Positions 3,856 to 57,759 of a DNA stretch of 64,000 nucleotides are shown here, one piece after another (the stretch's first letter is position 1; each line of letters begins with the position of its first letter). Under the pieces are notes generated by a model. It was given only the letters and a program-made list of their open reading frames with translations, did no database searches and was not told where the DNA came from. The DNA is from Acidobacteriaceae bacterium (GTDB lineage Bacteria; Acidobacteriota; Terriglobia; Bryobacterales; Bryobacteraceae), in assembly GCA_043788745.1 (NCBI GenBank), contig JAYVTO010000310.1, forward strand, positions 1,168 to 65,167, read 5' to 3'. The position numbers and the translations under genes are program-made.

Positions 3856-4013
3856 CTGCGTCTCGTGCCAGCAGGCGGGATCGCCGTGGTCCGACATCCG
3901 CGAGCGACGGGGTGCCAAGCCCGGCGAAGTAATCGGGCTTGCCGACGCCTTACTCCGGTGGCCCGCCCCGCAGACCTGGACTCAGCTACAATCGCGTAAT
4001 CAAAGGAAGTGTC

Positions 4014-6020
4014 ATGACACGACTCACCCTCGCGCTGGTCTGCGCTCTTTCGCTCCTCTCCGCAGGCACTAAGAAGTTCACTGTCGAAGACTCGCTCGCG
4101 ATCAACCGCGTCGCCGGGCCCAAGTTTTCGCCAGACGGCAATTGGGTCGTCTACACACAAACCGAATGGGACCAGAAAGGCGACCGCATGGTCTCGCACG
4201 TCTGGCTCACCGGTGCCAAAGGCAGCGCGACTCCCGTCAAACTCACCAACGGTGAGAAGGGCGAATCCGCGCCCGCATGGTCACCCGACGGTAAGCACAT
4301 CGCCTTCCTCGCCGACCGCACTGCCACGGCAGCCGGAGCCGCCCCAACCGAAGGCGCACGCGCCGCCACGCAAATCTGGCTTATCCGTCCCGCCGGCGGC
4401 GAAGCCGAAAAGCTGACCTCCGAAGAGAACTCCGTCACCGCTTTCAAGTGGTCGCCCAATGGAAAGCACGTCGCCTTCCTGACCCGCGACACGCCCAAGG
4501 ACAAAGCCGATCGCGAGAAGCGCAAGAAAGACAAGTTCGACGCCATCCTCGTCGACTCCGGTTTCACATACGCACACATCTGGACGATTGACCTTGTGTC
4601 CAAGAAGAAAGACCGCATCACGGAAGGCGCCTACTCCGCCGCGAGCCCTGCCTGGTCGCCCGACTCCAAATCCATCGCCTTCGTGCGCACCACCAACGGA
4701 GCGCAAGACAGCGGCTACTTCGTCCTCGACCCCGACAAGAACTCGGATATATACGTCGTCAACGCGGCTCCCAGCGCGACGCCGCGTAAGCTCACCACGA
4801 ACCTCGGCCCCGACACCAACCCCGTCTGGTCTCCCGACGGAACCCATATCGCCTACGTCGCGCAAAGCGACCCGAAAGCCTGGGCCGGCAAGAACGAAAT
4901 CATGATCGTGCCCGCTGCCGGAGGCACTCCGCGTAACGTCACGCCTGATTTTCCGGATGGCGCCGGAGCCAACCTGAAATGGTCGCCGGACGGCAAGAGC
5001 ATCTATTGGGATTCCGCCGAAGGCCTCCGCCATCACCTCTTCCGCGTGCCCGCAAGCGGCGGCCGCTTCGTCCACGTCACGGAAGGCGAACGCCTCCATT
5101 CGGACTTTGACCTCTCCGCAGACGGTACCCGCGCCGTCTCCGTTATTGACGACGGCAAAGCCCCGCCGGACATCTGGTCGCTCGATCTCAACGGCAGCGG
5201 CCGCGGCAAACTTACCAACGCCAATCCGCAAGTCGCCGACTTCGACATCGCCAACGCCGAAGCCGTCCGCTGGAAGGGTCCGGACAACTTCGACGTCGAA
5301 GGCCTACTCACCTATCCGCTCGGCTACACGCCCGGCAAGAAGATTCCGCTGGTCGTTTCCATTCACGGCGGACCCTACGGGGCTCACAGTGCCCGCTTCG
5401 ACGCCCGCTCGCAAATCTTCGCCGCCCACGGCTACGCGGTGTTAGCGCCGAATCCTCGCGGGTCAACAGGCTACGGAATGAAGTTCGAAACTGCGAACAT
5501 TAGCGACTGGGGAGGAAAAGATTTCGGCGACATCATGGCCGGCGTCGACGCGCTAGTCGCGAAGGGCATCGCGGATCCCGACAAGATGGTCGTCATGGGA
5601 GGCAGCTACGGCGGCTTCATGACCTTCTGGACCATCACCCAAACCAACCGCTTCAAAGCCGCCATCGGCCACGCCGGAATCAGCGACTGGTACAGCTTCC
5701 ACGGCCAGAGCGACATCCCCGGCCTGATGGAATATGGCTTCGGAGGCCAGCCCTGGGTGTCGACAGAAACGTACCGCAAATTCTCGCCGATGACGTTCGT
5801 GGGCCGTGTGAAGACACCGATCATGATCACCCACGGAGAACAGGATCGCCGAGTCGCCATCGCCCAAGCCGAAGAATATTACCGAGCCTTAAAGGGAGTC
5901 GGAGTAGAAACCATCTTCGTGCGCTACCCAAGAGAAGGCCACGGAATCGCCGAGCCGAATCACCAGGTCGACTTGGTAGGTCGGCAGTTGGAGTGGTTTA
6001 AGCGCCACCTGGGGAATTGA
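4014..6020 (+). CDS. S9 family serine peptidase (prolyl oligopeptidase / acylaminoacyl-peptidase-like), secreted
   Basis: Signal peptide MTRLTLALVCALSLLSAG preceded by AAAGGAAG. WSPDG beta-propeller repeats. Catalytic GGSYGG, HGEQDRRV and EGHG near the C-terminus. Confidence 0.9.
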   Translation: MTRLTLALVCALSLLSAGTKKFTVEDSLAINRVAGPKFSPDGNWVVYTQTEWDQKGDRMVSHVWLTGAKGSATPVKLTNGEKGESAPAWSPDGKHIAFLADRTATAAGAAPTEGARAATQIWLIRPAGGEAEKLTSEENSVTAFKWSPNGKHVAFLTRDTPKDKADREKRKKDKFDAILVDSGFTYAHIWTIDLVSKKKDRITEGAYSAASPAWSPDSKSIAFVRTTNGAQDSGYFVLDPDKNSDIYVVNAAPSATPRKLTTNLGPDTNPVWSPDGTHIAYVAQSDPKAWAGKNEIMIVPAAGGTPRNVTPDFPDGAGANLKWSPDGKSIYWDSAEGLRHHLFRVPASGGRFVHVTEGERLHSDFDLSADGTRAVSVIDDGKAPPDIWSLDLNGSGRGKLTNANPQVADFDIANAEAVRWKGPDNFDVEGLLTYPLGYTPGKKIPLVVSIHGGPYGAHSARFDARSQIFAAHGYAVLAPNPRGSTGYGMKFETANISDWGGKDFGDIMAGVDALVAKGIADPDKMVVMGGSYGGFMTFWTITQTNRFKAAIGHAGISDWYSFHGQSDIPGLMEYGFGGQPWVSTETYRKFSPMTFVGRVKTPIMITHGEQDRRVAIAQAEEYYRALKGVGVETIFVRYPREGHGIAEPNHQVDLVGRQLEWFKRHLGN

Positions 6021-36273: not shown

Positions 36274-37871
36274 TTAGAAGATCAGGCGCACGCCGAGACG
36301 AATCTCGCGAATGGCCTGAAACAGCGTCGGACGGGTGTAGATGGGGTTGTACTTCGGCCCAGCTGCTACCGGCTTTGCCGCCGTCGATCCGCCAATGCCC
36401 GGAGCATACAAATTCTGCGGGTTGACGAAGTCGCTCAGTTTGTAGCCGGCGAAGAATGCTTTCACCGGTAACACTCCTTCGCTGATCGCTCCGTTGCGGT
36501 TGATCTGCTGTGAGAAGTTCGTCGGTGTCGCCTGGTTAAACAGGTTGGTTGCGTTCGCTTCCATGCGTACCTTGAAGCGATCCGAAACCGTCACGGTGTG
36601 CGAGATGCCGAGATCGGTCTGCGTCAACACGGGTGTGCGCCCGAGATCGCCGCGGCCATTCGGATAGGTCGGTGCCAACTGGTAGATCACCGAGGTCGAC
36701 AACGGCGTACCGCTCCAGGCATTCTGCGTCAAGCCGAACGTGGTCTGTCCAGCCATCCACTTCAGGTCGTAGGAGGCGAACAGCTTGAACGTGTGCGGCC
36801 GATCGGTCGCCCGGCGGCCAAACACATTCTGCTGGCTGCCGCTGGCGTCGAAGTAGTAGTACGGCAAATCGAACGCGCGATCGTTGTTCGGGTTCGAGCG
36901 GCCGTTTTCATCAGAGTTTGCCAGGCCGGCATAGTTGCCGTACAGGCGGCTCCAAATGTAGGACGTGTTCAACATCAGGTTGTTCATCACGCGTCCGCGA
37001 ACGCTGAATTCCACAGCGTCGTAGTCACGGGTGGCCTGCGGAACCAGGAATTCCTTCCCGTTTGGCGTCTTCGCTCCGAAGTCGCTCTTCACGTTGCGCG
37101 TGAGGCCGCGGCCCGGGTTGCCGATCAGGTAGACTTCGGTGTCGTCTTTGTCGAGCACGCCGATGTCGTCAATCGAGTTCACCAGGCGCTTGCGCGTGTA
37201 GCGGACTCCGGCGACCAGCCGGTTGGACAACTGGTGGTCCAACGTCATGTAGAATTCCCGCGTGTGGTACGGCTTCAGATCGGGATCGTTCCCCAAGATG
37301 ACGCCTTGCGCATCGATGTCGACGGTGCGGTTGTCGTAGTTGATGATTTCTTTGCCGAGAACGCCGGGGTTGACTTTCGACAAGCTGGAGACAGCCGGGC
37401 TGTTCAGTTCGTAAACATGGCTGACCCAGAACTCACCGCCAAACGAACCGCGCGCGAGGTTGAACTTCATCACGTCGTAGTAGTCTGAATAGCCCGTGCT
37501 GAGCTTCCACTTGCCGTCGCCCAGAACGTCCCAGGCGAGGCCGAGACGCGGCGCGATCTTCTCGCCCCAGCCGAAGTTAACCGGTTTGCGAATCTGCACG
37601 CCTGCCTGCACGGCCTTGTACGGCGGCAGGAATTCGTTTTCAAAGCGCACGCCCAGGTTGAGCGTGACACGCGAATGGATGCGCCAGCCATCCTGGACGT
37701 AGAAGCCCTGGTTGCGGCCGTTCACCTTCGAGACACGTTCACCTTCGAGAGCAGCCGGACGCCGTCCTGCCAGATATAATAGCCGTACGTGCCGGTCCGC
37801 TTGTTGATGCTGCCGCGCGTGAATTGGTCACCCCGATATTGGGGCGAAAGTTGTCGAATTGCGCTCAAAAA
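36274..37871 (-). pseudogene. TonB-dependent receptor remnant (C-terminal beta-barrel only; 5'-truncated and frameshifted)
   Basis: The 483-aa ORF ends in the OMP terminal motif ...IRLGVRLIF and has barrel repeats but no signal peptide, plug or TonB box. Upstream, the frame is broken by a 17-bp tandem duplication (37719-37752). The other frame is open only to 37871. Confidence 0.75.
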
Positions 37872-39468: not shown

Positions 39469-39690
39469 ATGGAGCAAGATATGGCGCACTTTAATTCGAA
39501 ACGAGAGAAGCGTTCGCGAGCGGAAATCAATCGCGCCAACGCCCAGCACTCCGCCGGACCGCGTCGCGATTCAACGCGCACACGCACGGCCTGTGCGCCC
39601 TGACGCTCATCCTGCCCGAATCGGACCAGGACAGCGCCCGCTCGTTGAATGGACGCTCTTGCTCCGCGCTCGCCCATGCTACAATTTGGG
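39469..39690 (+). pseudogene. Decayed small ORF (frameshifted, 3' end overrun by the S8 peptidase gene)
   Basis: Frame a: MEQDMAHFNSKREKRSRAEINRANAQHSAGP. The continuation ...ASRFNAHTHGLCALTLILPESDQDSARSL is in another frame. From memory, both halves resemble a conserved hypothetical family (NRANAQ-STGP ... NA-KHGL ... LP-ED). Confidence 0.3.
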
Positions 39691-39696
39691 TCTAAT

Positions 39697-41715
39697 ATGC
39701 ATCCTCTGTTTCGATTCTGTATTGTGAGCCTCCTGGCGTTGACCGGGCTTTTGGCTCAGAGCGATTACACCTTTTCCGATGGCGGCCGGAAGTCCGCCTA
39801 CGTGTTGTCGCAAGATGAAGTGTTTAGCAGCACGGCCGCTGTGAATTCCGCACGCGGCGTTTCCTCCTGGGGCGGCGGCAAGCTTTTCCAGCTCGATTCG
39901 CCCCGAGCGGTAAACAAGCTACGCGCGGCCCGATCGAACCGGAGCGGCATTATTCCGGTCTTCTACGACAAGTCTAACCTGCCCTCGGCGGAGATACTCG
40001 CCGCCTTGACCCCCGCCGAACGGGCCAAGCGCAAGGACGGCGCTCGCCGTCTGATGACGGCAAAACTGCTGGTCCATATGGATGCGGCCCGTTACAACGA
40101 ACTCGCTGCCACCCAGCCCACTGCCGCCGAGGCGAGCCTGCTCAAAGGCTGGATGTTGGTGGCGTATCCGGACGCCTTCGCCGCACTGGATGCGGTTGAT
40201 TGGATGCTGAAGCAAGGCGGATGGGAGTTCACTCCCGTGTTCGCTCGCGAAGCGTTCGTGCGCCAAGCATTGAAGCGCGAGGTAAGCGATCCGCTCTACC
40301 CCAAGCAATGGCATCTCGACGACAAATCCCCCTTCAACATCGGCATGAAGAATGCCTGGGATCAGGTTACGGGGAAGGGAATTAACATGGCCATCGTCGA
40401 CGACGCCCTCGAAATCAAGCACGAGGATTTTACGAACGCCTACCCGCTCGAAACGAACTATCACCGCAATTTCAAGGCAGACGGCGCGCCCAACGACCCT
40501 TCGCCGATGACCGCGAAGGAGAATCATGGCACCTATTGTGGCGGGCTGGCCGCCGCGGCCGGTTTCAACAATACCGGCGTTACGGGCGTAGCTCCGGAAG
40601 TCCGGGTGATGGGCCTGCGTTTTGTGGGCGGCGTGGTTTCCGAGGAAGCGGCAGGGCTGGCCCTGGCGTGGCAGCCGGAAGGCATCATCACCCACGTCTC
40701 CAGCAATAGTTGGGGTCCGTCCGATGACGGCAAAGACGACGGCCGCGTGAGTGCCCTGCATTTGGCGGGTATCGAGAAAGGCGCGACAACCAACCGCGAC
40801 GGCTTAGGCACCGTTTACTCCATCTCTTGTGGCAACGGTCGCGATGACGGCGACGATGCGAGCTACGACGCCGCCTCCGGCAGCCGTTTTGGCATCGCCG
40901 TGGCCGCGGTGGGACGCGATGGAAAGCAGAGTTCCTACTCCGAAAGTGGTATTTCGGTGGCCATCGCCGCGTTTGGCGGCGAGTTCCAACCGCCGACGGT
41001 GTTGTGGAGCACCAACGTTTCTGGTGAGGAGGCTTTCAAGAACAAGGCCGCGAGCTTTCCGACTACCGAAGCGCCGATCAACTACACCGACGCGGGGAAC
41101 GGCACCTCCGCCGCGGCGCCCCAGGTGTCTGGAGCAGTGGCGTTGCTTCTCGAGAAGAATCCCAAGCTCAACTATCGCGACGTCAAGGAGATCCTGATGA
41201 AGTCCGCGAGCCGGGAAGGGCTGCAAGGCACGGACAAGTTTGTGGTCAATAAGGGCGGTTTCTTCTTTAGCAACGCCTTCGGTGCCGGCCTTCTTAACGT
41301 GGCTGCGGCTTTGGAACTTGCCACGGACTGGAAGGTCGCTGGTCCCCTGGTGAACGCGGAAGTGTCCGGCACCGGCGAGGCCATCCCCGATGACGGGAAA
41401 CTCGTAGAGGTTTCTTTCGCCCTGCCGGATGCCAAAATCCGCGTGGAGCATGTCGAAGTGACTGTCACAGTGAAGCATGCCAAGCGGGGCGATTTGTCCT
41501 TCGGAATCATGTCCCCGAGTGGATATCTCGCTGTCGCGGCCAACCGGCCGAAGGACGACAACGCAGACTTCACCGACTATATTTTCACCACTCCGCACTT
41601 CTGGGGCGAATCGGCGGCTGGAACTTGGAAGCTCATAGTATCCGATCTACGCGCCAATGGAACGGCAGGTTCCTTGGGAGCGGTGAAGCTCAAGGTTTAC
41701 GGTACTGCTGAGTAA
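39697..41715 (+). CDS. S8 subtilisin/kexin-like serine peptidase with C-terminal P (proprotein-convertase) domain, secreted
   Basis: Signal peptide MHPLFRFCIVSLLALTGLLAQ. Triad contexts MAIVDDALE, HGTYCGGLAAA, GNGTSAAAPQVSGAVALLLE. C-terminal GDLSFGIMSPSG...AAGTWKLIVSD resembles a P-domain. Confidence 0.9.
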   Translation: MHPLFRFCIVSLLALTGLLAQSDYTFSDGGRKSAYVLSQDEVFSSTAAVNSARGVSSWGGGKLFQLDSPRAVNKLRAARSNRSGIIPVFYDKSNLPSAEILAALTPAERAKRKDGARRLMTAKLLVHMDAARYNELAATQPTAAEASLLKGWMLVAYPDAFAALDAVDWMLKQGGWEFTPVFAREAFVRQALKREVSDPLYPKQWHLDDKSPFNIGMKNAWDQVTGKGINMAIVDDALEIKHEDFTNAYPLETNYHRNFKADGAPNDPSPMTAKENHGTYCGGLAAAAGFNNTGVTGVAPEVRVMGLRFVGGVVSEEAAGLALAWQPEGIITHVSSNSWGPSDDGKDDGRVSALHLAGIEKGATTNRDGLGTVYSISCGNGRDDGDDASYDAASGSRFGIAVAAVGRDGKQSSYSESGISVAIAAFGGEFQPPTVLWSTNVSGEEAFKNKAASFPTTEAPINYTDAGNGTSAAAPQVSGAVALLLEKNPKLNYRDVKEILMKSASREGLQGTDKFVVNKGGFFFSNAFGAGLLNVAAALELATDWKVAGPLVNAEVSGTGEAIPDDGKLVEVSFALPDAKIRVEHVEVTVTVKHAKRGDLSFGIMSPSGYLAVAANRPKDDNADFTDYIFTTPHFWGESAAGTWKLIVSDLRANGTAGSLGAVKLKVYGTAE

Positions 41716-41843
41716 GCAGCGCTGGAGTCCATAAACAGAGCGGAGGCCGCGGGGAGAATATCCCTCGCTGCCTCCTCCTGTTTGTTGCCACAGGGGAAAT
41801 TGATGCCTGGAAATCCTGGAGAGATTCCCTCTACCAACGTATC

Positions 41844-42398
41844 TCAAAAAAAGCGCGGCTGAATCAGACCGTCCTTCAAGCCAGCCCGCGACAACTCGAT
41901 GATCTGGTCGATGGCAGTCGGGATCGCGTTTAGCCGCGCGATGTAGTTCCGGTAGTCTTCGACCGTCGCAAACGGAGCAACCGTCGAAAGCTGGGGGAAG
42001 ATCAGATGCGCTCCATGCAACTGGTCGAGCGGCATCTCGTAGTTCTTGAGCCGGACGGACTCCAGTTGATCGCTCAGCGTCTGCGTCAACAACGGATGAT
42101 CGAGCAGATCGGCGGCAGGCAGACCCGCCGGGTCAATCGCCTTCACGCGATCAAGCAATGCCGCGGCATCTTTCCGCGAAGCCTCGACGTGTGCGAGCGA
42201 GAAATCGGACAACTTGCCGTTGTACTTGTTCTCGCCGAGCGAGGTCGCCGACTCCGGGCTCTCGCGGAGGAAGAAGGCCCAATAGTCGTCGGCAATGGCG
42301 CGCAGACTCTTCTGCCGCGCCAAAACATCAGGTTTCGGCGCGGAACAAGTGGCCAGCACGATCGCCGTGCAGGCCAACAGCAGTTTCGATTTCGTCAT
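41844..42398 (-). pseudogene. DUF885-family lipoprotein gene, 3'-truncated (N-terminal about 184 aa only)
   Basis: Lipobox LATCS plus ADDYWAFFLRESPESATSLGENKYNGKLSDFS... is a DUF885 N-terminus. Family members are about 3 times longer (from memory). The ORF stops at PRFF* in a T7 run, and no frame downstream continues the family. Confidence 0.65.
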
Positions 42399-42449: not shown

Positions 42450-43481
42450 CTAAATCCCGGGCCGCTGCACTTCTTTTGGCGCACGCTGCCGGTCATGTCC
42501 TTCGAGCTTGAACTTCCATTCGAGCGGAATGGATTCGGGAACGTAGCAGACCTTGTCGTCGCAGGCCTGATAGCGCAGAGTGCCCTTTACGGTGAACTCG
42601 CCTTCGGCCGACAACAACGGCTTCAACTTCGCGTCGGGCACGATTGTGATGTCGCGTGTGAGCCGGAGCGAACTGTCGTAAACCAGCGCGGTCTCTTTGA
42701 TCGCCTTGAGCCGCAGCGTCTTCGATTTCGGATAGACCACGGGCTGCGCGATAACGGCCGGATCGTCCAGCTTAAAGTCGATTGCGATATAACCCTCGAC
42801 ACCAGGCGCGTAGACGTGCATCTTCTTCTTTAGCTCTATGTCGAGAACCAGCGGAAAGCGCTGTCCACTGCGGACCACGGTCTCACCCGCCGAGGACGAC
42901 AGCCGCAGATGCTTGGTCTCCTTCGTCGTATGCGCGACGCCAGGCATCACGTTCATCTCTTTAAGAAGGATGTCAGAGGTCGTGTAACGTTTTGTGTAGT
43001 CTTCTTCGAAGTACTTCGCCGTCACCACGCCCTCGGCGTCGACGAGGAATGTACCGGGAAGCGGAATTCCGAAGAACAAGCCCTTCGGGGCTTGCTCATT
43101 CAAAATCCCGAAGGCGCGGATAATCTTCGAATCCGGATCGGACAACAGCGGATAGCCGACCTTCTTGCGCTCCGCGAAATTCTTCAGGGTGCCGACAGTG
43201 TCATAGCTGATCGCCACCAGCCCTATGCCCTGTTCGGCCAACTTCTGGCGGTTGTTTTCCAGCTCCACGAGCTGGGTTTTGCAGTACGGTCACCAATCGG
43301 CCGACCGGAAGAACACGACCATCGTACCTTTCGGACCGGCGACGCTCGCAAGCGTCCGTTCGACGCCATGCTGATCCGGGGCAGAAAACGCCGGAATGGG
43401 AGAACCGACCGCAGGTCCGGGCTGGGCGTACTGTACTGTAGCGGTCACGGCGGCTAACACGAACGAGGAGAATATGCGCAT
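42450..43481 (-). CDS. Secreted redoxin/AhpC-TSA-like thioredoxin-fold domain fused to a DsbD-N-terminal-like domain; in-frame TGA (43290-43292) as candidate selenocysteine
   Basis: ORFs 43290..43481 and 42450..43268 are in the same frame. Joined they read ...GTMVVFFRSADW-[TGA]-PYCKTQLVELENNRQKLAEQGIGLVAISYD..., so the TGA takes the place of the first Cys of W-C-P-x-C. Hairpin CCAGCUC-GUG-GAGCUGG lies 14 nt downstream (43259-43275). The C-terminal YQACDDKVCY is DsbD-alpha-like. Confidence 0.6.
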
Positions 43482-45274: not shown

Positions 45275-46564
45275 CTAACGAATAAAGAACGTCCGCTTGT
45301 CGCTGTCGATGTTAATCGCGACGTCAAAGAAGCCGATCATCATCTCTTCCCAACTCTGCTCGCCCCAATGCACCTCGACCGTTGGATCCGGGTTGCGCGG
45401 GTTGTTCTTCGAGTTGTCGAACCACCCGATCCAGCGAAAGCGTGTGCCCTTCGTCAATGGAATCGGCGTGCGAAACCAGTAGGTGAGCTGCCAAGCGAAG
45501 TCATACGGCTTCACGCGAAGTAGTGTGTCGACGCGGCCTGTGGGTTCGACGATCGCGTACTCGAACGCACTGCCGCGCCTGTGCATGTGCGGGAACAAGC
45601 TGACGAGCAGCGCGTCGCCGGGCAATGTCCCGCTTACCGAGACGCGATGATTCGCTTCGCCGGGTGGAATCACAAAGTCGTCCCGACCCATCTGTAAAGT
45701 GATCAGTTGCAACTTCGGCCTCTCCTGCGCGACGACCAGCCCGATCTCCGTCTGATCGGTCGAATCGACATCGAGCGCCGTGTAATGCATCTGCAGAATG
45801 AGGTCCGATCCCGCCGGAATCTTCTTCGCCATGCCAGGCGGAAACACGGCGCTCGCAGATCCGGGAGTGTACACGGCGAGGATGTCCTCCTGTGTGGCGC
45901 GCGCCCGTTGCACCGCTTCGCGATCCGCGGCCGGCGGCGCATAGATGTCGCCGGACTTCGCCTCGCGAAGCCACGTCGATCCGGGCGGCCGCACGAAAAC
46001 CACCGCGTGATGCACTGTGCGGTGATTGCTCGGCCGCACCTCCACCTGCGTCACCCAACGGTCAAACGTAAAGTTCGAAGGGATCACGACGTACTGATAG
46101 TCGATCGTCTTCTTCGCTCGAATCGCGAAGGGTTTCGACATGCCGATGACAATGTCGGGTGACGTGTTCCAACCCTCAGTCCACCGGATGGGCTTGGGCG
46201 TTTCCTTCTTTAACCCCTCTGGCGCGCCGGCTTCCACCCAGGCGTCGATCGCGACCTTCTCATCCGCGGTCAGGCTGGGGTTGTTTAAGAAGCCGCCGTG
46301 CGCTGTGGCGGAGAAGGCCGCATCCATCGGCCACGGCGGCATCTTGTTGAGCTTCACGACTTCGCGAATCGATTTCGCCCACGGCCGCACTTGCGCATAG
46401 GTGACCAATGCCATGGGGCCAATTTGCCCGGGGCGATGGCAGTTCTGACATCGGCGTTGCAGGATCGGCAAGACATCCCGATTAAAGGACGGCACGTCCG
46501 CGGCGTGCGCAGGCACGGTCGCTAGAAAGACAATCCACGAAATCAGAACGAAGCAGCAGCGCAC
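45275..46564 (-). CDS. Secreted heme-c-motif protein with PHM/DBH-like copper type II monooxygenase domains
   Basis: The 756-aa ORF is trimmed to in-frame GTG 46564 (MRCCFVLISWIVFLATVPAHA signal peptide). CQNCH heme motif. Ligand-like pattern VHHAVVF, LQMHYT, FPHMHRRG, EEMMIGF. The upstream part of the ORF is antisense to the next gene. Confidence 0.7.
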   Translation of the reverse strand: MRCCFVLISWIVFLATVPAHAADVPSFNRDVLPILQRRCQNCHRPGQIGPMALVTYAQVRPWAKSIREVVKLNKMPPWPMDAAFSATAHGGFLNNPSLTADEKVAIDAWVEAGAPEGLKKETPKPIRWTEGWNTSPDIVIGMSKPFAIRAKKTIDYQYVVIPSNFTFDRWVTQVEVRPSNHRTVHHAVVFVRPPGSTWLREAKSGDIYAPPAADREAVQRARATQEDILAVYTPGSASAVFPPGMAKKIPAGSDLILQMHYTALDVDSTDQTEIGLVVAQERPKLQLITLQMGRDDFVIPPGEANHRVSVSGTLPGDALLVSLFPHMHRRGSAFEYAIVEPTGRVDTLLRVKPYDFAWQLTYWFRTPIPLTKGTRFRWIGWFDNSKNNPRNPDPTVEVHWGEQSWEEMMIGFFDVAINIDSDKRTFFIR

Positions 46565-46597
46565 AGGTCTCTTTGAAACGGAGTGTACCGCGTTCGC

Positions 46598-48211
46598 ATG
46601 GCGCGCGGTCCGGGGTACACTAGCGAATTGCCGAACCAATACGATGCCATCATTGTAGGCGGAGGCCACAACGGCCTGGTAACCGCCGCGTATCTTGCCC
46701 GCGCCAAGCGCCGCGTGCTCGTCCTCGAATCGCGAGAACTTGTCGGCGGTTGCGCGGTCACTGAGGAAATCTGGCCCGGATACAAGGTCTCGACCGCATC
46801 CTATCTCTCGAGCCTGATGCAGGAGAAAGTCGTGCGCGAGCTCGAGCTCGCTAAGTACGGCTATCGCGTCGACGCAAAGGATCCCGCGTTCTTCTCGCCG
46901 TTTCCCGATGGCCGATACCTCTTCATGTGGCAGGATCGCGCGAAGACGTTGGCCGAGATTGCGAAGTTCTCGAAGCGCGACGCGGAAGCGTTTCCGCGTT
47001 TCGAAGAGCATCTCGAAAAGCTCGCGGTCGTTGTGGAATCGTTGCTGCTCACCACTCCGCCCGCCTTTCCGCCGAAGTCGCCCGGTGACTTCTTCAACTA
47101 TCTGAAGATCGCTGGACGCGCGCGCGGGCTCACTCGCAAAGAGCTGGTGGGCCTCGTGAAGATATTCACGCAGTCGGCGGCCGACTTCCTGAACGAATGG
47201 TTCGAGAGCGAAGAGGTGATCGTCACGCTCGCCACCGATGGCGTGATCGGGGCGAACGGCGGTCCGAAGTCGGCGGGCACTGCCTACATCCTGCTGCACC
47301 ATTGCATGGGCGGCATCGACGGGCACCGCGGCTTGTGGGGATTTGTGCGCGGGGGCATGGGCGCCGTGTCGAACGCGATCGCGGATTCCGCGCGCGCCTA
47401 TGGCGCCGAGATTCGCGTGAACGCGCGCGTTGCGAAGATCCTCACCAAGGGCGGTCGCGCGACTGGCGTTGTTCTTAAGAACGGCGACGAGATCGAAGGG
47501 AAGGTGGTTGCGTCGAATCTCGATCCGAGCCAAACCTTTCTGCATTTAGTGAATCCCACGGAACTGCCGTCCGACTTCGTCGACGGCATTCGCAAGTTCC
47601 GTTCGGAAGGCACGTCGTGCAAGATCAATCTTGCGTTGAATGGCTTGCCCGACTTCAAGTGTTTGTCGGGGACGCCCGCGCCGCATCACAAAGCGACGAT
47701 GCACATCTGTCCGAGTATCGATTACGTCGAACGCGCATGGGACGACGCGAAGTACGGCAAGCCTTCGCAGAAGCCGCTGCTCGAAATGACGGTGCCGACA
47801 ATGTACGATCCGAGTCTCGCACCCGCGGGCAAGCACATTATGGGCATCTTCCTGCAATATGCGCCGTACACGTTGCGCGGCACGACATGGGATGTCGAGC
47901 GCGAACCGTTCGGCGATCGCGTGCTTGATATCATCGCGGAGTATGCGCCGAACATCAAGAGCATCGTCGAGCACCGCCAGATTCTGACGCCACTCGATCT
48001 CGAACAGCGTTTCGGCATTACGGGGGGGAACATCTTCCACGGCGAGATGAGCATCGATCAGATGTTCGTGTTGCGGCCGCTTGCTGGCTGGGCGGATTAC
48101 CGGACGCCGATCAAAGGCCTGTATCTGTGCGGCTCCGGCGCACATCCTGGCGGCGGCGTGATGGGCGCGCCGGGGCATAATGCCGCACGTGAGATTCTGA
48201 AGGACAACTAA
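46598..48211 (+). CDS. NAD(P)/FAD-dependent oxidoreductase, phytoene-desaturase (CrtI) family
   Basis: YDAIIVGGGHNGLVTAAYLA dinucleotide fold. Amine-oxidase/CrtI-like C-terminus LYLCGSGAHPGGGVMGAPG. Confidence 0.85.
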   Translation: MARGPGYTSELPNQYDAIIVGGGHNGLVTAAYLARAKRRVLVLESRELVGGCAVTEEIWPGYKVSTASYLSSLMQEKVVRELELAKYGYRVDAKDPAFFSPFPDGRYLFMWQDRAKTLAEIAKFSKRDAEAFPRFEEHLEKLAVVVESLLLTTPPAFPPKSPGDFFNYLKIAGRARGLTRKELVGLVKIFTQSAADFLNEWFESEEVIVTLATDGVIGANGGPKSAGTAYILLHHCMGGIDGHRGLWGFVRGGMGAVSNAIADSARAYGAEIRVNARVAKILTKGGRATGVVLKNGDEIEGKVVASNLDPSQTFLHLVNPTELPSDFVDGIRKFRSEGTSCKINLALNGLPDFKCLSGTPAPHHKATMHICPSIDYVERAWDDAKYGKPSQKPLLEMTVPTMYDPSLAPAGKHIMGIFLQYAPYTLRGTTWDVEREPFGDRVLDIIAEYAPNIKSIVEHRQILTPLDLEQRFGITGGNIFHGEMSIDQMFVLRPLAGWADYRTPIKGLYLCGSGAHPGGGVMGAPGHNAAREILKDN

Positions 48212-48229
48212 GCGGCTATACTCGCGGAC

Positions 48230-49417
48230 ATGCGCCGCGTTCTTTGCACATTTGTTTTTCTTGGGTCCGCGTTCGGCCAAACACCTCCCGCAGCCGCTTT
48301 CGTTGGGTCCGCGAAGTGCCAGCCCTGTCACGCGAAGACCTACGTGAGTTGGAAGAAGACGTTGATGGCCAATATCTTTCAGGACGTGAAGGCGCATCCA
48401 GAGGCGATCCAGGGTGACTTCTCGACGCCGAATCCGCTGGTCACGTTCGCAATCAAAGACATCGATTTCACGTACGGCAGCAAGTGGAAGCAGCGCTACT
48501 TCAAAAAGGTCGGCAACGACTATTTCGTTCTGCCCGCGCAATGGGACGTTACGGCGAAGGTCTGGCGGAACTACTACGTCCGTCCGGGAACCGATTGGTG
48601 GACCGCACAGTATCCGGCTGAGCAGATGCAGCGTCCGACTGGCCCAACCTGCGACGGCTGTCATTCGGTGAACTTCAACACGAAGGACAATTCCGTTACC
48701 GAATGGAACGTCGGCTGCGAGCGTTGCCACGGCGCGGGTAGTGCGCATGTGAAGGCGCCGTCGCGAAACAACATCGTGCAACCCGGAGGGCTGGATTCGG
48801 TGCGCGCGAACGACGTCTGCATCCAATGCCACTCCGAAGGCCGTCCGACGCAGAATCCAATCGACGGCCGCTACTATGCGTGGCCCGTGGGCTATCAGCC
48901 GGGCGCGCGATTGGCAGACTTCTGGAAACTTGAGGAGCACACGTTCGGCGCGAATTCGTTCCTCCATTTTCCGGATGGTTCGGCGCACAAGAACCGGATG
49001 CAGGGCAACGATTTCGTTTCGAGCGCGATGCATCAGCGCGGGGTTCGATGCTCCAGTTGCCATGATGTGCACGGAACCAATCACGCCGCGGATCTCATCA
49101 AGCCCGGCAACTCGATGTGCCTGGAGTGCCACGGCCCCGAGTCGCCCAATGGTCCGCGCGGCGGCGTAGCGGAGCACGCGCATCACAAGGTTGACAGCGC
49201 GGGCAGCGAGTGCGCCGCGTGCCACATGCCGAAAATCGCGCAGACGCTCGACGTGGTGAATGTGCGGAGCCACACCTTCCGCTTCATCTGGCCGGGGATG
49301 ACGGACAAATACAAGATCCCGAATCCGTGCACGACGTGCCACAAGGACAAAACGACGGACTGGGCGACACGCGAACTAAAGCGTTGGACGACGATTTCGC
49401 CGTGGCGCGTGCAGTAG
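48230..49417 (+). CDS. Octaheme c-type cytochrome, secreted
   Basis: Signal peptide, then eight CxxCH motifs: CQPCH, CDGCH, CERCH, CIQCH, CSSCH, CLECH, CAACH, CTTCH. Starts 18 nt after the flavoprotein stop. Confidence 0.9.
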   Translation: MRRVLCTFVFLGSAFGQTPPAAAFVGSAKCQPCHAKTYVSWKKTLMANIFQDVKAHPEAIQGDFSTPNPLVTFAIKDIDFTYGSKWKQRYFKKVGNDYFVLPAQWDVTAKVWRNYYVRPGTDWWTAQYPAEQMQRPTGPTCDGCHSVNFNTKDNSVTEWNVGCERCHGAGSAHVKAPSRNNIVQPGGLDSVRANDVCIQCHSEGRPTQNPIDGRYYAWPVGYQPGARLADFWKLEEHTFGANSFLHFPDGSAHKNRMQGNDFVSSAMHQRGVRCSSCHDVHGTNHAADLIKPGNSMCLECHGPESPNGPRGGVAEHAHHKVDSAGSECAACHMPKIAQTLDVVNVRSHTFRFIWPGMTDKYKIPNPCTTCHKDKTTDWATRELKRWTTISPWRVQ

Positions 49418-54285: not shown

Positions 54286-56820
54286 TCACTGCAACAAATC
54301 CGCAACTCGCTCGATTGCGTCCTCAAGCCGCTGTGGTTTCGTTAGAACGCCTGCAAACAGATCGCCGAGCCGTGCGAATCTGGCTGGTGAGTTGCGAATA
54401 TGAAAGTTCCGCGGGTCGAGCTTCGGCGTGACTTCACGCCAAGCCAGCGGCGTCGCGACCGGGGCTCCGGGATGAGGTCTTGGTGCGTAGGGCGCGGAAA
54501 TCGTCTTGCCGCTTCCGATTTGCGCCCAGTCGAAATACACGCGGTCTTTCTCGCGCTTCGAAACCGCGCGCGGAGTGGTGAACAAGTCCGGACGTTCGGC
54601 GGCGCAGATGCTTGCCAGCAACTCGGCAAAGCTCCTTGCCTGCTCGAAGGTGTACGTCGGTTCGAGTGGAATGTAGATGTGCATCCCATCGCCGCCGGTG
54701 GTCTTCGGGTAGCCTTCGAGACCAAGCGCGTCGAGCTTCTTCTTGACCAACAGCGCGGCTTCGACGATGCGGGCGTATGCGCATTCGTGCGGATCGAGAT
54801 CGATGAGCACGTAGTCGGGATGCTCGATCGAGTCGATGCGCGACATCCCCGGATTCTGATCGATGCAGGCGAGGTTCGCAAGGAAAAGGAGCGTTGCGCG
54901 GTCGTGCCCGATAACGTAGTTAATGCCGTCGACCTCGGCGAGGCGAAGCCACTTCGGAAAGCTCTCGGCAGCCTCTTTCTGAAAGAAGAACTCGCCATCA
55001 ATGCCGTTCGGATATCGTTTCAACGACAGCGGCCGGTCGCGCAGGTGCGGTAACAGCAGATCGGAGACCGCGTCGTAGTAGTTGATGAGGTCGCGTTTCG
55101 CGTAGCTTTCGGCCGGCCAGAAGATCTTGTCGAGGTTCGTGAACTTCAGCTTCTGGCCGTCAATTGTCAGCGTCGCTTCTTTCTTCGCCGGGTCGAACAG
55201 CGGGCCTTTCGCGGTCTCGACCGGCGGATCCTCGGTCGCTCTTACTTCGCGCACGCAATCCGCCGGAGCGACATCGTTCCGGAGAGCTACAAACGAAGGC
55301 GCGCGCAGGCGGCCTTCTTCGGTCCACTGTAGGAACTTCACTTGGCAAACGATTTCCGGCCTCGTCCAGGTCGTCTTCGCGGCAATCGACTTGTCCATGG
55401 CGAAGAGCGGCCCCGCGACGATCAGCGGCTGGAGCGCCGCGTGGATCTTCTCCATCATCTTGCGATCCAAACCCGTGCCGACGTTGCCCGCCCAGTCGAG
55501 CTTGCCGTTTGCGTAGAGGCCGAGTACCAGCGCTCCGAACAGTTCGCGTTCACCCGACGTAGAGCCGCAGATCACGAACTCCTGCTGGGAGACGGCTTTG
55601 TACTTCACCCAATTGTTACTGCGTCGCGCCTCATAGAAGGACTTCGCGAGTTTTCCGATGACGCCTTCGAGGCCTTGCGCTTTTGCGGCTTCGAACAACT
55701 TGGCACCGTGCCCGGCGAAGTGCTCTGAGAAGCGGATGTGGTCCGTCGGCGTGAGGACCTCCGTCAACAACCGCTTGCGCTCTGTCAGCGCGACGCCGCG
55801 CAGATCGTAACCATCGAGGTAGACCAGGTCGAACAGAAACAGCACCACGGGGCGCTCGCGCGCGAGCATCGCGGCCGCGCTCGCATCGGAGACATGCATC
55901 CGGCGCTGCAAGAGTTCGAAATTCGGCAAGCCGCGTTCGTCGAGCGCCGCGATCTCGCCATCGAGAATCGCGGTCTGCGCGCGGATGTGTCGCGGGAGGA
56001 CGGAGACCTCGGGATACTGCCGGTCCATCGCGTTACCGTTTCGCGACACCAGGCGCAACGCTCCCTCCTGCAGGTAGCACAGCGCACGCACGCCGTCCCA
56101 CTTCACCTCGTACAGCCAATCGCCCTTCTGCTTCCCGATCGTTTGCGGGTCGCCGAGTACTGCTTTCATCGGCTCCACGCGCTCCGGCATGGGCGCTCGC
56201 GCCGCGCCTTTGATCTTCGACAGGTCGCGCGGCTGGAAATCGGTGTGGGCTTTCGCACCGTTCGCGATCTCGTCTTGGGTGCGCCCCGTAAGCACGCTAT
56301 ACGCGTGCTGTTCCGGATCCCAGCCCGTTGCGGAGTCGGGGTCCTTCTTCTTGATAAGCAGCCATTCGTTGCCGCGCGATTGTGCCGACTTCATCCGCAC
56401 GATGGCGAACTCGCCGCGGGCTTTCTGCCCGTGCAATCGAAACTTGAAATCGCCCCGCTCCAGTTGCTCTTCCGCCGTCTTGTCGCCGAGCACTTCATAC
56501 GTGCCGCGATCCCACAACATCATGCTGCCGGCACCATATTGGCCTCTGGGAATCACGCCTTCGAAGCGCGCGTACTTCATCGGATGGTTCTCGGTCATCA
56601 TCGCCATGCGCTTGACCGCCGGATCCTGCGTCGGACCCTTGGGTACGGCCCACGACTTCAACACACCACCAATTTCGAGACGCAGATCATAGTGCAAGTT
56701 GGTGGCGTGATGCCGCTGAATACAGAACGCCGGGACGCCGCCGGGCGACGGCTCGTCGTCGCCGGTGCGTTCCGGGGTCTGGTCAAACTGGCGCTTGGTG
56801 CGGTATTCTTCGAGTGCCAT
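54286..56820 (-). CDS. ligD: ATP-dependent DNA ligase D (phosphoesterase - ligase - polymerase order)
   Basis: N-terminal PE domain FCIQRHHATNLHYDLRLE, ligase motif I YEVKWDGVR, and a C-terminal primase-polymerase domain (DLDP..., GGDGMHIYIP). Confidence 0.95.
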   Translation of the reverse strand: MALEEYRTKRQFDQTPERTGDDEPSPGGVPAFCIQRHHATNLHYDLRLEIGGVLKSWAVPKGPTQDPAVKRMAMMTENHPMKYARFEGVIPRGQYGAGSMMLWDRGTYEVLGDKTAEEQLERGDFKFRLHGQKARGEFAIVRMKSAQSRGNEWLLIKKKDPDSATGWDPEQHAYSVLTGRTQDEIANGAKAHTDFQPRDLSKIKGAARAPMPERVEPMKAVLGDPQTIGKQKGDWLYEVKWDGVRALCYLQEGALRLVSRNGNAMDRQYPEVSVLPRHIRAQTAILDGEIAALDERGLPNFELLQRRMHVSDASAAAMLARERPVVLFLFDLVYLDGYDLRGVALTERKRLLTEVLTPTDHIRFSEHFAGHGAKLFEAAKAQGLEGVIGKLAKSFYEARRSNNWVKYKAVSQQEFVICGSTSGERELFGALVLGLYANGKLDWAGNVGTGLDRKMMEKIHAALQPLIVAGPLFAMDKSIAAKTTWTRPEIVCQVKFLQWTEEGRLRAPSFVALRNDVAPADCVREVRATEDPPVETAKGPLFDPAKKEATLTIDGQKLKFTNLDKIFWPAESYAKRDLINYYDAVSDLLLPHLRDRPLSLKRYPNGIDGEFFFQKEAAESFPKWLRLAEVDGINYVIGHDRATLLFLANLACIDQNPGMSRIDSIEHPDYVLIDLDPHECAYARIVEAALLVKKKLDALGLEGYPKTTGGDGMHIYIPLEPTYTFEQARSFAELLASICAAERPDLFTTPRAVSKREKDRVYFDWAQIGSGKTISAPYAPRPHPGAPVATPLAWREVTPKLDPRNFHIRNSPARFARLGDLFAGVLTKPQRLEDAIERVADLLQ

Positions 56821-56907
56821 CGAACGTAAGCGGTTGAAAATGTTTGCCTTTCTATGTTATCGCTGAAGAGGGCGCGCGCACAGGCGGCTTACCTGGGGAG
56901 GATCTTT

Positions 56908-57759
56908 ATGGCATCGACGGTTTGGAAAGGCCATCTCACGTTCGGCCTAGTCTCGTTTCCCATTAAACTGTACAGCGCCGCGCGCGGCGAGAGCGTCAGC
57001 TTTAACCAACTGCACAAGCACGACGGCTCGCGCGTCAAGCAGGTGCTGTTCTGCCAGGCCGAAGACAAGCCGATCTCGCGCAGCGAGATCATTAAAGGCT
57101 ACGAGTACGAGAAGGATCGTTACGTCACGATCGAGGACGAAGACATTAAGAAGGTGGCGCCGCCGACTGCGAAGGTGATGGAGGTCCTCGAGTTCGTGAA
57201 GGCCGATCAGGTCGACCCGATCTATTACGAGACGTCCTATTACATGGCGCCGGATGAAGCGGGCGAGAAGCCGTACGCGCTGCTGTTCGAGGCGTTGAAG
57301 AAGTCCGGATATTGCGGCGTGGGCAAGATCTCGATGCACAACCGTGAGCACATCGTGATTTTGAGGCCCGGCAAGAACGGCGTGCTGCTGCACACGATGT
57401 TCTTCAATCACGAAATCCGGCAGGTGGATGAGTTCCGCACCGATCTCGACCTCGTGAAGGAGAAGGAGCTCGCGCTCGCGATGATGCTCGTCGAAACTCT
57501 TGCCGCCGACTTTGAGCCGGCGAAATACAAGGACAGTTTCCGCGAGAATCTGCTGGCGATGATCGAAGCGAAGAAGGCGGGCCAAGAGATTGTTGCCGCG
57601 CCGGAACCGCAACAGCATAAGGTCATCGATATTCTCGAAGCTTTGAAGGCGAGCCTCGCGATGGCGAAGAAGCCAGCGGCCTCCGCTCCGGCAGCGACAC
57701 AGGAAGCAACGGCGATCGCCGAGAAGGCGCCGCGAAGGCGCAAGGCGAGCGGTGGCTAG
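56908..57759 (+). CDS. ku: Ku protein (NHEJ)
   Basis: MASTVWKGHLTFGLVSFPIKLYSAAR... preceded by GGGGAGG. Lys/Ala-rich tail. Divergent from ligD. Confidence 0.95.
   Translation: MASTVWKGHLTFGLVSFPIKLYSAARGESVSFNQLHKHDGSRVKQVLFCQAEDKPISRSEIIKGYEYEKDRYVTIEDEDIKKVAPPTAKVMEVLEFVKADQVDPIYYETSYYMAPDEAGEKPYALLFEALKKSGYCGVGKISMHNREHIVILRPGKNGVLLHTMFFNHEIRQVDEFRTDLDLVKEKELALAMMLVETLAADFEPAKYKDSFRENLLAMIEAKKAGQEIVAAPEPQQHKVIDILEALKASLAMAKKPAASAPAATQEATAIAEKAPRRRKASGG

Follow-up and report, generated by a model that had tools for sequence, protein, structure and literature searches.

What does the TGA triplet at positions 43290-43292 signify in a minus-strand reading frame of the Acidobacteriaceae bacterium contig JAYVTO010000310.1 (assembly GCA_043788745.1), of which a stretch of 64,000 nucleotides (nt), hereafter the window, was analyzed: the end of a gene, a lesion in one, or a codon for selenocysteine (Sec)? 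An original prediction, made from the sequence alone, had favored the last of these and proposed a candidate selenoprotein in which the stop replaces the first Cys of a redox motif and is followed by a hairpin resembling a selenocysteine insertion sequence (SECIS). That proposal is upheld by an in-frame UGA where homologues have Cys, by conservation on both sides of it, and by a hairpin that is under selection. We consider it highly probable that one gene occupies 42450..43481 (minus strand) and encodes an exported selenoprotein of 343 amino acids (aa); most likely it is a periplasmic thiol:disulfide reductase, in which a C-terminal domain resembling the alpha domain of DsbD would relay reducing equivalents.

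Reading frame and conservation of the UGA codon

On the minus strand, 42450..43481 is one reading frame that runs from an ATG at 43479-43481 to a TAG at 42450-42452, and its sole break is the TGA at 43290-43292, codon 64 of 344, which stands in the local series TGG TGA CCG TAC TGC. A mechanical list of open reading frames (ORFs) splits this frame into a 63-aa ORF (43290..43481) and a 272-aa ORF (42450..43268) starting at a GTG at 43266-43268; the TGA and that GTG are separated by just seven sense codons (P Y C K T Q L). Read through, the product comprises 343 aa, MRIFSSFVLAAVTATVQYA/QPGP...GPKGTMVVFFRSADW-U-PYCKTQLVELENN...MHVYAPGVEGY...LRYQACDDKVCYVPE, the slash marking the likely cleavage site of the signal peptide. 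On re-reading, the coordinates and motifs of the original prediction (the frame, the TGA, the seven codons and the hairpin at 43259-43275) all proved correct. The features of the gene are as follows.

42450..43481, minus strand: predicted complete selenoprotein gene of 343 codons, including one UGA-Sec, plus TAG, from reading of the frame; the public annotation holds only the 272-aa part 42450..43268 (P0001, NCBI)
43425..43481, minus strand: predicted Sec-type (export) signal peptide MRIFSSFVLAAVTATVQYA with likely cleavage before QPGP, read from the sequence; the N-termini of relatives are hydrophobic too
43290..43292, minus strand: UGA as probable selenocysteine, residue 64, the first position of U-P-Y-C; TGA in 78 of 80 related loci
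43281..43283, minus strand: Cys67, the second and presumably resolving residue of U-x-x-C, which profile alignments place on the peroxidatic Cys of peroxiredoxins (Prx)
43259..43275, minus strand: hairpin CCAGCUC-GUG-GAGCUGG of probable bacterial SECIS type, encoded by T-Q-L-V-E-L-E and lying 14 nt past the UGA, from comparative data
42981..43409, minus strand: Prx-fold (AhpC/TSA, redoxin) thiol:disulfide oxidoreductase domain, residues 25-167, from Pfam and from PDB profile and fold matches
42534..42875, minus strand: beta-sandwich domain resembling DsbD-alpha and ScsB-alpha, residues 203-316, from Pfam DsbD_N, a structure model and PDB fold matches
42546..42563, minus strand: invariant pair C307-D-D-K-V-C312 within Y-Q-A-C-D-D-x-x-C-Y, from alignments A1, A3 and A4

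Relatives of the gene were collected in one scan of a species-representative genome collection, which yielded 80 loci, one per species and nearly all from Bryobacterales, Bryobacteraceae, Solibacteraceae or Terriglobia. Complete Bryobacterales chromosomes were among the genomes recovered (OY729422.1, OZ243965.1, OX638379.1, OZ252029.1, OZ255834.1 and OZ220485.1). At the identical codon, 78 of the 80 species-level loci carry TGA and two (L013 and L076) carry a Cys codon, TGT or TGC. Amino-acid identity across the TGA-bearing relatives spans 46-73%; the closest of them, a Bryobacterales metagenome-assembled genome (MAG; locus L001) that is 72% identical, has TGA at the same codon and, in frame upstream of it, the conserved signal peptide and 40 further residues. 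Over the related loci the frame upstream of the TGA is open for a median of 83 codons, and identity of the relatives to the window protein is 60.8% in the 42 residues before the TGA and 57.2% in the 42 residues after it, which bears out the earlier view that neither half is sensible alone. One locus counted among the 78, L058, reads U-I-Y-C (at about 4130) in place of U-P-(Y/F)-C.

A protein search with the read-through query, carrying C for U, returned a full-length class of 340-380 aa with the motif RSADW-C-P(Y/F)CK, and 61 of 68 full-length database homologues have Cys in the Sec column (alignment A3). The same search returned a second class, made up of many proteins of about 275 aa that begin with (M/V)ELQ, an artificial start like that of P0001. 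Alignment to homologues, proposed originally as a check on whether this column holds Cys or TGA, thus places the stop on the first Cys of a C-x-x-C motif. As a separate observation, locus L079 (VFZE01000008.1), labelled Acidimicrobiia, has a typical TGA-containing member of this otherwise acidobacterial family, and may be mis-binned or horizontally transferred.

Could the gene simply be broken? A pseudogene would have arisen by a nonsense change of TGC or TGT to TGA in a Cys-type redoxin gene, leaving the downstream ORF as a decaying remnant. Decay or rearrangement next door is suggested by the adjoining DUF885 gene, which encodes 184 aa vs 586 aa in L001, and locus L059 has a frameshift about 22 codons upstream of the TGA (about 3950-4061). 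L059 is the only such locus, and its frameshift may be an indel error in a long-read MAG or the mark of a pseudogene there; a survey of relatives for additional disruptions, which the original prediction had called for, found this frameshift and no further stops. However, a nonsense mutation or sequencing error cannot explain the TGA, because the same triplet is kept in 78 of 80 species-level genomes across the 46-73% range of protein identity, with both flanks equally conserved and under purifying selection; furthermore, the hairpin described below is maintained by compensatory substitutions. Contaminating copies of one sequence are no better an explanation, since the 78 DNA stretches compared (76 distinct relatives, L001 and the window) all differ from one another. 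On this comparative evidence the pseudogene reading is effectively refuted, and the Sec reading of the TGA is close to certain at the level of the family.

The downstream hairpin and the decoding of UGA

The original prediction had pointed to a SECIS-like hairpin 14 nt after the UGA, and its inverted repeat, CCAGCTC-GTG-GAGCTGG, gives -11.5 kcal/mol when folded alone. Two properties of this hairpin count against reading much into it by itself: the 71-nt stretch does not stand out from its shuffles in folding energy (z = -0.44), and the usual codons for Q-L-V-E-L are self-complementary by nature. Because of this unremarkable stability and self-complementarity, the significance of the hairpin was judged by comparison, using an ungapped alignment of the 78 Sec-form sequences (A2) in which the helix pairs columns 21-27 with columns 31-37. 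In this alignment, 92.5% of the helix cells pair, vs 14-41% when one arm is slid by 1-3 columns, the observed covariation score was reached by none of 500 shuffles, and RNAalifold independently predicts a 6-bp core with a 5-nt loop.

At synonymous sites, compensatory changes maintain the pairing. Where the wobble base of the Gln codon faces the first base of the Leu codon, G-C occurs in 61 sequences, A-U in 13, G-U in three and A-C in one, such that CAA is almost always combined with TTG (Fisher p = 3e-11, without correction for shared ancestry). The A-U state is found in differing local sequence contexts, which points to several independent events. Two further pairs show changes of the same kind, from C-G to U-A at 25-33 (two sequences) and from C-G to G-C at 21-37 (eight sequences). 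The G and U of the loop never vary; with the U of UGA numbered 1, they occupy nt 25-26, and together they open a conserved Val codon. In the encoded peptide, Q-L-V-(E/Q)-L is found in 78/78 Sec forms vs 18/61 Cys forms, and in both Cys-form loci the hairpin is broken. Judged from these sequences, such a distribution is the pattern expected for a SECIS that overlaps coding sequence.

Like the SECIS of E. coli fdhF, the window hairpin lies inside the coding region straight after the UGA and has a conserved apical-loop G-U, which we take to correspond to G23-U24 of the E. coli element. In contrast, at 6-7 bp it is far shorter than the E. coli element, and it shows neither a bulged U nor a conserved extended lower helix. 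Rfam gave no match, either for the whole window at the gathering score or for 43180-43330 at E <= 10; this is a further unfavorable result, yet we do not count it as evidence against a SECIS, because bacterial SECIS elements are too short and variable and a null is usual. We propose that UGA 43290-43292 is decoded as Sec, with the hairpin acting as a bacterial SECIS, and that SelB with Sec-tRNA(Sec) would bind the apical G-U loop and deliver Sec to the ribosome. The comparative data above support a hairpin-directed, SelB-dependent insertion of Sec at UGA-64.

An alternative is that near-cognate decoding or a lineage-specific code places another residue than Sec at the UGA (such as Trp, Cys or Gly) and that the hairpin is a generic stimulator of read-through. 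Sec machinery was not observed in the 64-kb window, as this alternative would have it, and some gene callers gave Trp at the codon. The latter is a caller's artefact, since the 'W' at the Sec column of P0003 (L083) overlies a TGA codon. Moreover, TGA terminates ordinary genes of the window: the stop codons of its 37 coding-like ORFs of at least 150 aa are TAG in 20, TAA in 10 and TGA in seven, and the genes ended by TGA include some with Pfam matches to the last residues. Among neighbor genes in the related loci, TGA is used 135 times, TAG 90 times and TAA 81 times. TGA is thus an ordinary stop in the genes of the window and is not reassigned genome-wide. The predominance of TAG in the window is itself unexpected for a genome of 60% G+C.

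Also at odds with non-Sec read-through, the recoded site is the catalytic Cys column, at which Cys is the only common alternative (L013, L076 and the 61 homologues); this pairing of Sec and Cys is the signature of selenoproteins. The position of the hairpin and its G-U loop are as in bacterial SECIS elements. Finally, in the supplement of Zhang et al. 2006 (PMC1794560), Acidobacteria are represented in the selenium-trait table by Solibacter usitatus, a species of the order Bryobacterales like most of the 80 relatives; its FdhA1 and FdhA2 are listed in the selenoprotein file there, and two of its entries in a supplementary sequence file are presumed to be SelA and SelB. Table 2 of the same paper (PMC1794560) gives three selenoprotein families and four selenoproteins for Acidobacteria. 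The Solibacter usitatus entries support Sec use at the level of the lineage, and we regard non-Sec read-through as very improbable.

Apart from the hairpin's unremarkable energy, its codon bias toward self-pairing, the Rfam null and the frameshift of L059, several further results weigh against the selenoprotein reading. None of selA, selB, selD or tRNA-Sec was found in the 64-kb window (ARAGORN; Pfam on 30 ORFs). Locus L082 (protein P0033) has a genuine TCG Ser codon at the Sec column with the hairpin sequence intact, which may represent a recent Sec-to-Ser change. Proteomic or 75Se proof for any member of the subfamily was not found in the literature. ARAGORN likewise found no tRNA gene of any kind in the window and no tRNA-Sec adjoining the related loci (first 60 loci), and a six-frame scan of the window for long open flanks around in-frame TGA gave no coding-like selenoprotein candidate with a redox motif besides that at 43292. 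Set beside the conservation of the codon and of the pairing, these results leave insertion of Sec in the source organism itself the probable outcome.

Domain architecture and a proposed redox reaction

The N-terminal part of the predicted protein matches Pfam AhpC-TSA over residues 25-155 (E 1.3e-32), with Redoxin also matched, and the family profile retrieves from PDB the BCP and AhpE peroxiredoxins and ResA (E 1e-16 to 1e-11). The AlphaFold model used for the whole protein is that of the Cys-form homologue P0004, with a predicted local distance difference test score (pLDDT) of 93.5 and a predicted template-modeling score (pTM) of 0.86; it superposes on BcpB, AhpE and ResA with template-modeling (TM) scores of about 0.8 relative to the target.

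Such matches raise the question whether the protein is a true peroxiredoxin, reducing peroxide directly with Cys67 as the peroxidatic residue, instead of a thiol:disulfide oxidoreductase. The best Pfam, NCBIfam and PDB matches are indeed AhpC/TSA, BCP and AhpE peroxiredoxins, and profile alignments set Cys67 on the peroxidatic Cys and Sec64 on the Thr/Ser of the Prx motif T-x-x-C. Caulobacter ScsB reportedly reduces a periplasmic peroxiredoxin, which we count on the same side. However, the Thr/Ser position of the Prx motif P-x-x-x-(T/S)-x-x-C is Sec or Cys here, and the column of the catalytic Arg in the BCP and AhpE profiles is occupied by the invariant Pro142 of I-P-x-P-G-T; with these two replacements, the protein lacks two of the three catalytic features by which peroxiredoxins are defined. 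Pro142 takes the cis-Pro position that is characteristic of thioredoxin-fold proteins with C-x-x-C. The C-x-x-C reductase ResA matches about equally well, and no model of NCBIfam release 20.0, peroxiredoxin models included, reaches its cutoff (Bcp 63.7 bits vs 140; SelL-related 51.5 vs 120). A true peroxiredoxin is thus unlikely. The motif W-U-P-Y-C-K is of the thioredoxin/TlpA/ResA type, and 'Prx-like thiol:disulfide oxidoreductase' is, by these alignments, the right label.

The C-terminal half, described originally as DsbD-N-like, is confirmed as such by both profile and fold. Residues 203-316 match Pfam DsbD_N (PF11412) with E 9.5e-9 and 35.8 bits vs a gathering cutoff of 25, and PF11412 is precomputed for most homologues too. 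A model of this domain built from the exact window sequence has a pLDDT of 91.3, and its top four fold matches in PDB (Foldseek; E 4e-5 to 1.6e-4) are 6c29_A, the N-terminal domain of ScsB, 1vrs_A and 1vrs_C, DsbD-alpha complexed with DsbD-gamma, and 1jzd_C, DsbD-alpha complexed with DsbC, although these matches are only moderate (TM 0.44-0.67) and sequence identity is only 14-16%. C307 and C312 are invariant in every alignment, in the context Y-Q-A-C-D-D-x-x-C-Y-x-P.

With DsbD-alpha and the ScsB N-terminal domain (1vrs, 1jzd, 6c29) the window domain shares the immunoglobulin-like beta-sandwich fold (TM 0.58-0.67), the DsbD_N match and a Cys pair in Y-Q-x-C-...-C-Y-x-P. It differs in the spacing of that pair, C-x4-C vs the C-x5-C of E. 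coli DsbD, where we take the residues to be Cys103 and Cys109. In contrast to DsbD and ScsB, it has no attached membrane-embedded beta domain, and in contrast to DsbD it stands downstream of a thioredoxin/Prx-fold domain, not upstream of a transmembrane domain. No transmembrane domain follows the signal peptide in the window protein, and no gene of DsbD/CcdA type was found in the 64-kb window (Pfam on 30 ORFs) or conserved next to the relatives.

A reaction scheme consistent with these features can be proposed. After cleavage of the signal peptide the product would be exported to the periplasm, as the signal peptide suggests, and the mature protein would combine the Prx-fold domain, with Sec64-Pro-Tyr-Cys67, and the alpha-like domain, with Cys307-x4-Cys312. 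Sec64 would act as the nucleophile on a substrate disulfide (or another oxidized sulfur species) and Cys67 would resolve the intermediate, giving a selenylsulfide. The selenylsulfide may then be recycled via the Cys pair of the alpha-like domain, which would communicate with a membrane reductase of DsbD/ScsB/CcdA type; the flow could equally well be reversed, from the redoxin by way of the alpha domain to periplasmic clients. From its sequence features, the product is most likely a periplasmic thiol:disulfide reductase.

Against the relay stands the lack of a conserved neighbor or partner gene among the relatives, the commonest neighbor family occurring in only 12 of 78 loci, and electron transfer between the domains is suggested by domain homology and invariant Cys alone. 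A more specific version, which we advance tentatively, is a self-contained periplasmic relay in which the DsbD-alpha-like Cys pair and the Sec-Cys center might exchange electrons via an interdomain selenylsulfide. Bearing on this possibility, none of the four redox residues varies, and confidence in the model of the entire protein is high (the pTM given above).

Earlier catalogs, neighboring genes and wider meaning

The selenoprotein family, including the two-domain orthologue group to which the window gene belongs, has been known since 2006-2008. Under '#Prx-like thiol:disulfide oxidoreductase', the supplementary sequence file of Zhang, Romero, Salinas, Gladyshev 2006, Genome Biol 7:R94 (PMC1794560) holds a Solibacter usitatus entry of 343 aa, ...FYRSADWUPYCKTQLVELEQNRERIRK...MHVYAPGV...LRYQACDDKKCYTPE. 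The window protein is 54% identical to this entry over 336 aa (E 6e-135), and by this comparison the entry is a full-length orthologue with both domains. The two proteins share the length of 343 aa, the signal peptide, RSADW-U-PYCKTQLVELE, MHVYAPGV, YQACDDxxCY and both domains, and differ in species, the window gene coming from an uncultured relative. To our knowledge, the 2006 paper described neither the C-terminal domain nor the covariation of the hairpin, nor the order's nearly universal use of Sec, and we know of no experimental validation of the Solibacter usitatus protein. DsbD is not mentioned in the main text of PMC1794560.

In the Global Ocean Sampling (GOS) selenoproteome of 2008 (PMC2398784), 12 reads have SADWUP, and one of them has the whole architecture including YQACDDAICY. 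The fusion of a Sec-containing redoxin with a DsbD-alpha-like domain, which the original prediction thought unusual, is accordingly the standard architecture of a widespread family, catalogued in 2006 from Solibacter usitatus and in 2008 from GOS. A 2026 review of prokaryotic selenoproteomes places 'Prx-like thiol:disulfide oxidoreductase (PF00578; UxxC, UxxU)' among the families 'predicted with high confidence', a grade that implies that no experimental proof is cited there. Taking the definition of the Prx-like thiol:disulfide oxidoreductase family (Kryukov and Gladyshev 2004; Zhang et al. 2006) from the table of that review, we find in the window protein the AhpC/TSA fold with U-x-x-C and similarity to listed members.

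Among these members, the single-domain 'Prx-like 1' proteins of Geobacter and other Deltaproteobacteria (pfam00578, UxxC) share with the window protein the redoxin domain, W-U-P-Y-C, L-P-L-P-G-T-F-(V/L)-(I/V)-D and D-Y-T-x-R. Identity to the Geobacter sulfurreducens member is 32% over 170 aa of the redoxin domain (E 2e-19). That protein differs in its length of 209 aa, and its listed sequence has neither an obvious signal peptide nor a DsbD_N-like domain.

The surroundings of the gene offer several observations in their own right. The DUF885 gene downstream (41844..42398, minus strand) matches positions 1-136 of the 532 of its Pfam profile, and in the 586-aa neighbor in L001 only residues 1-192 align with it; next comes a convergent gene for an S8 peptidase (39649..41715). 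Near 41840 there is thus either the remnant of a gene, the breakpoint of a rearrangement or a chimeric contig. ORF 36274..37725 (minus strand) starts at a GTG and matches only positions 366-686 of the 838 of the OMP_b-brl_4 profile, and could represent the C-terminal portion of an interrupted or mis-started, longer outer-membrane gene. Within 54286..57759, a Ku-like ORF (56854..57759, judged by its N-terminal sequence) adjoins an 844-aa DNA ligase D-like ORF, and the two would form a nonhomologous end-joining pair. Pfam matched neither of two large minus-strand ORFs of 756 and 598 aa (45275..47545 and 47546..49342) at E <= 1e-3 or 1e-4. A multihaem cytochrome c gene of the opposite strand (48230..49417) overlaps the latter ORF, which may be spurious.

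The practical value of the finding lies in correcting a widespread truncated annotation. The deposited product is the 272-aa fragment, and dozens of public homologues are likewise fragments of about 275 aa ('hypothetical protein') or have Trp at the Sec codon. That no NCBIfam model reaches its cutoff explains the truncation by automatic annotation, and a model specific to the family and flagged for Sec would correct the gene calls in no fewer than 78 species-level Bryobacterales/Terriglobia genomes.

For the bacteria themselves, the gene represents a widespread, predicted exported selenoprotein of abundant soil Acidobacteriota that is so far uncharacterized. Its DsbD-alpha-like domain suggests a link between selenium and redox homeostasis of the cell envelope, which will be no surprise to specialists. 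If the self-contained relay were true, it would be the first DsbD-type electron cascade using selenium, and one nearly universal in Bryobacterales (78 of 80 species with Sec); such near-universal use of Sec would suggest a strong selective advantage in the oxidizing cell envelope of soil bacteria.

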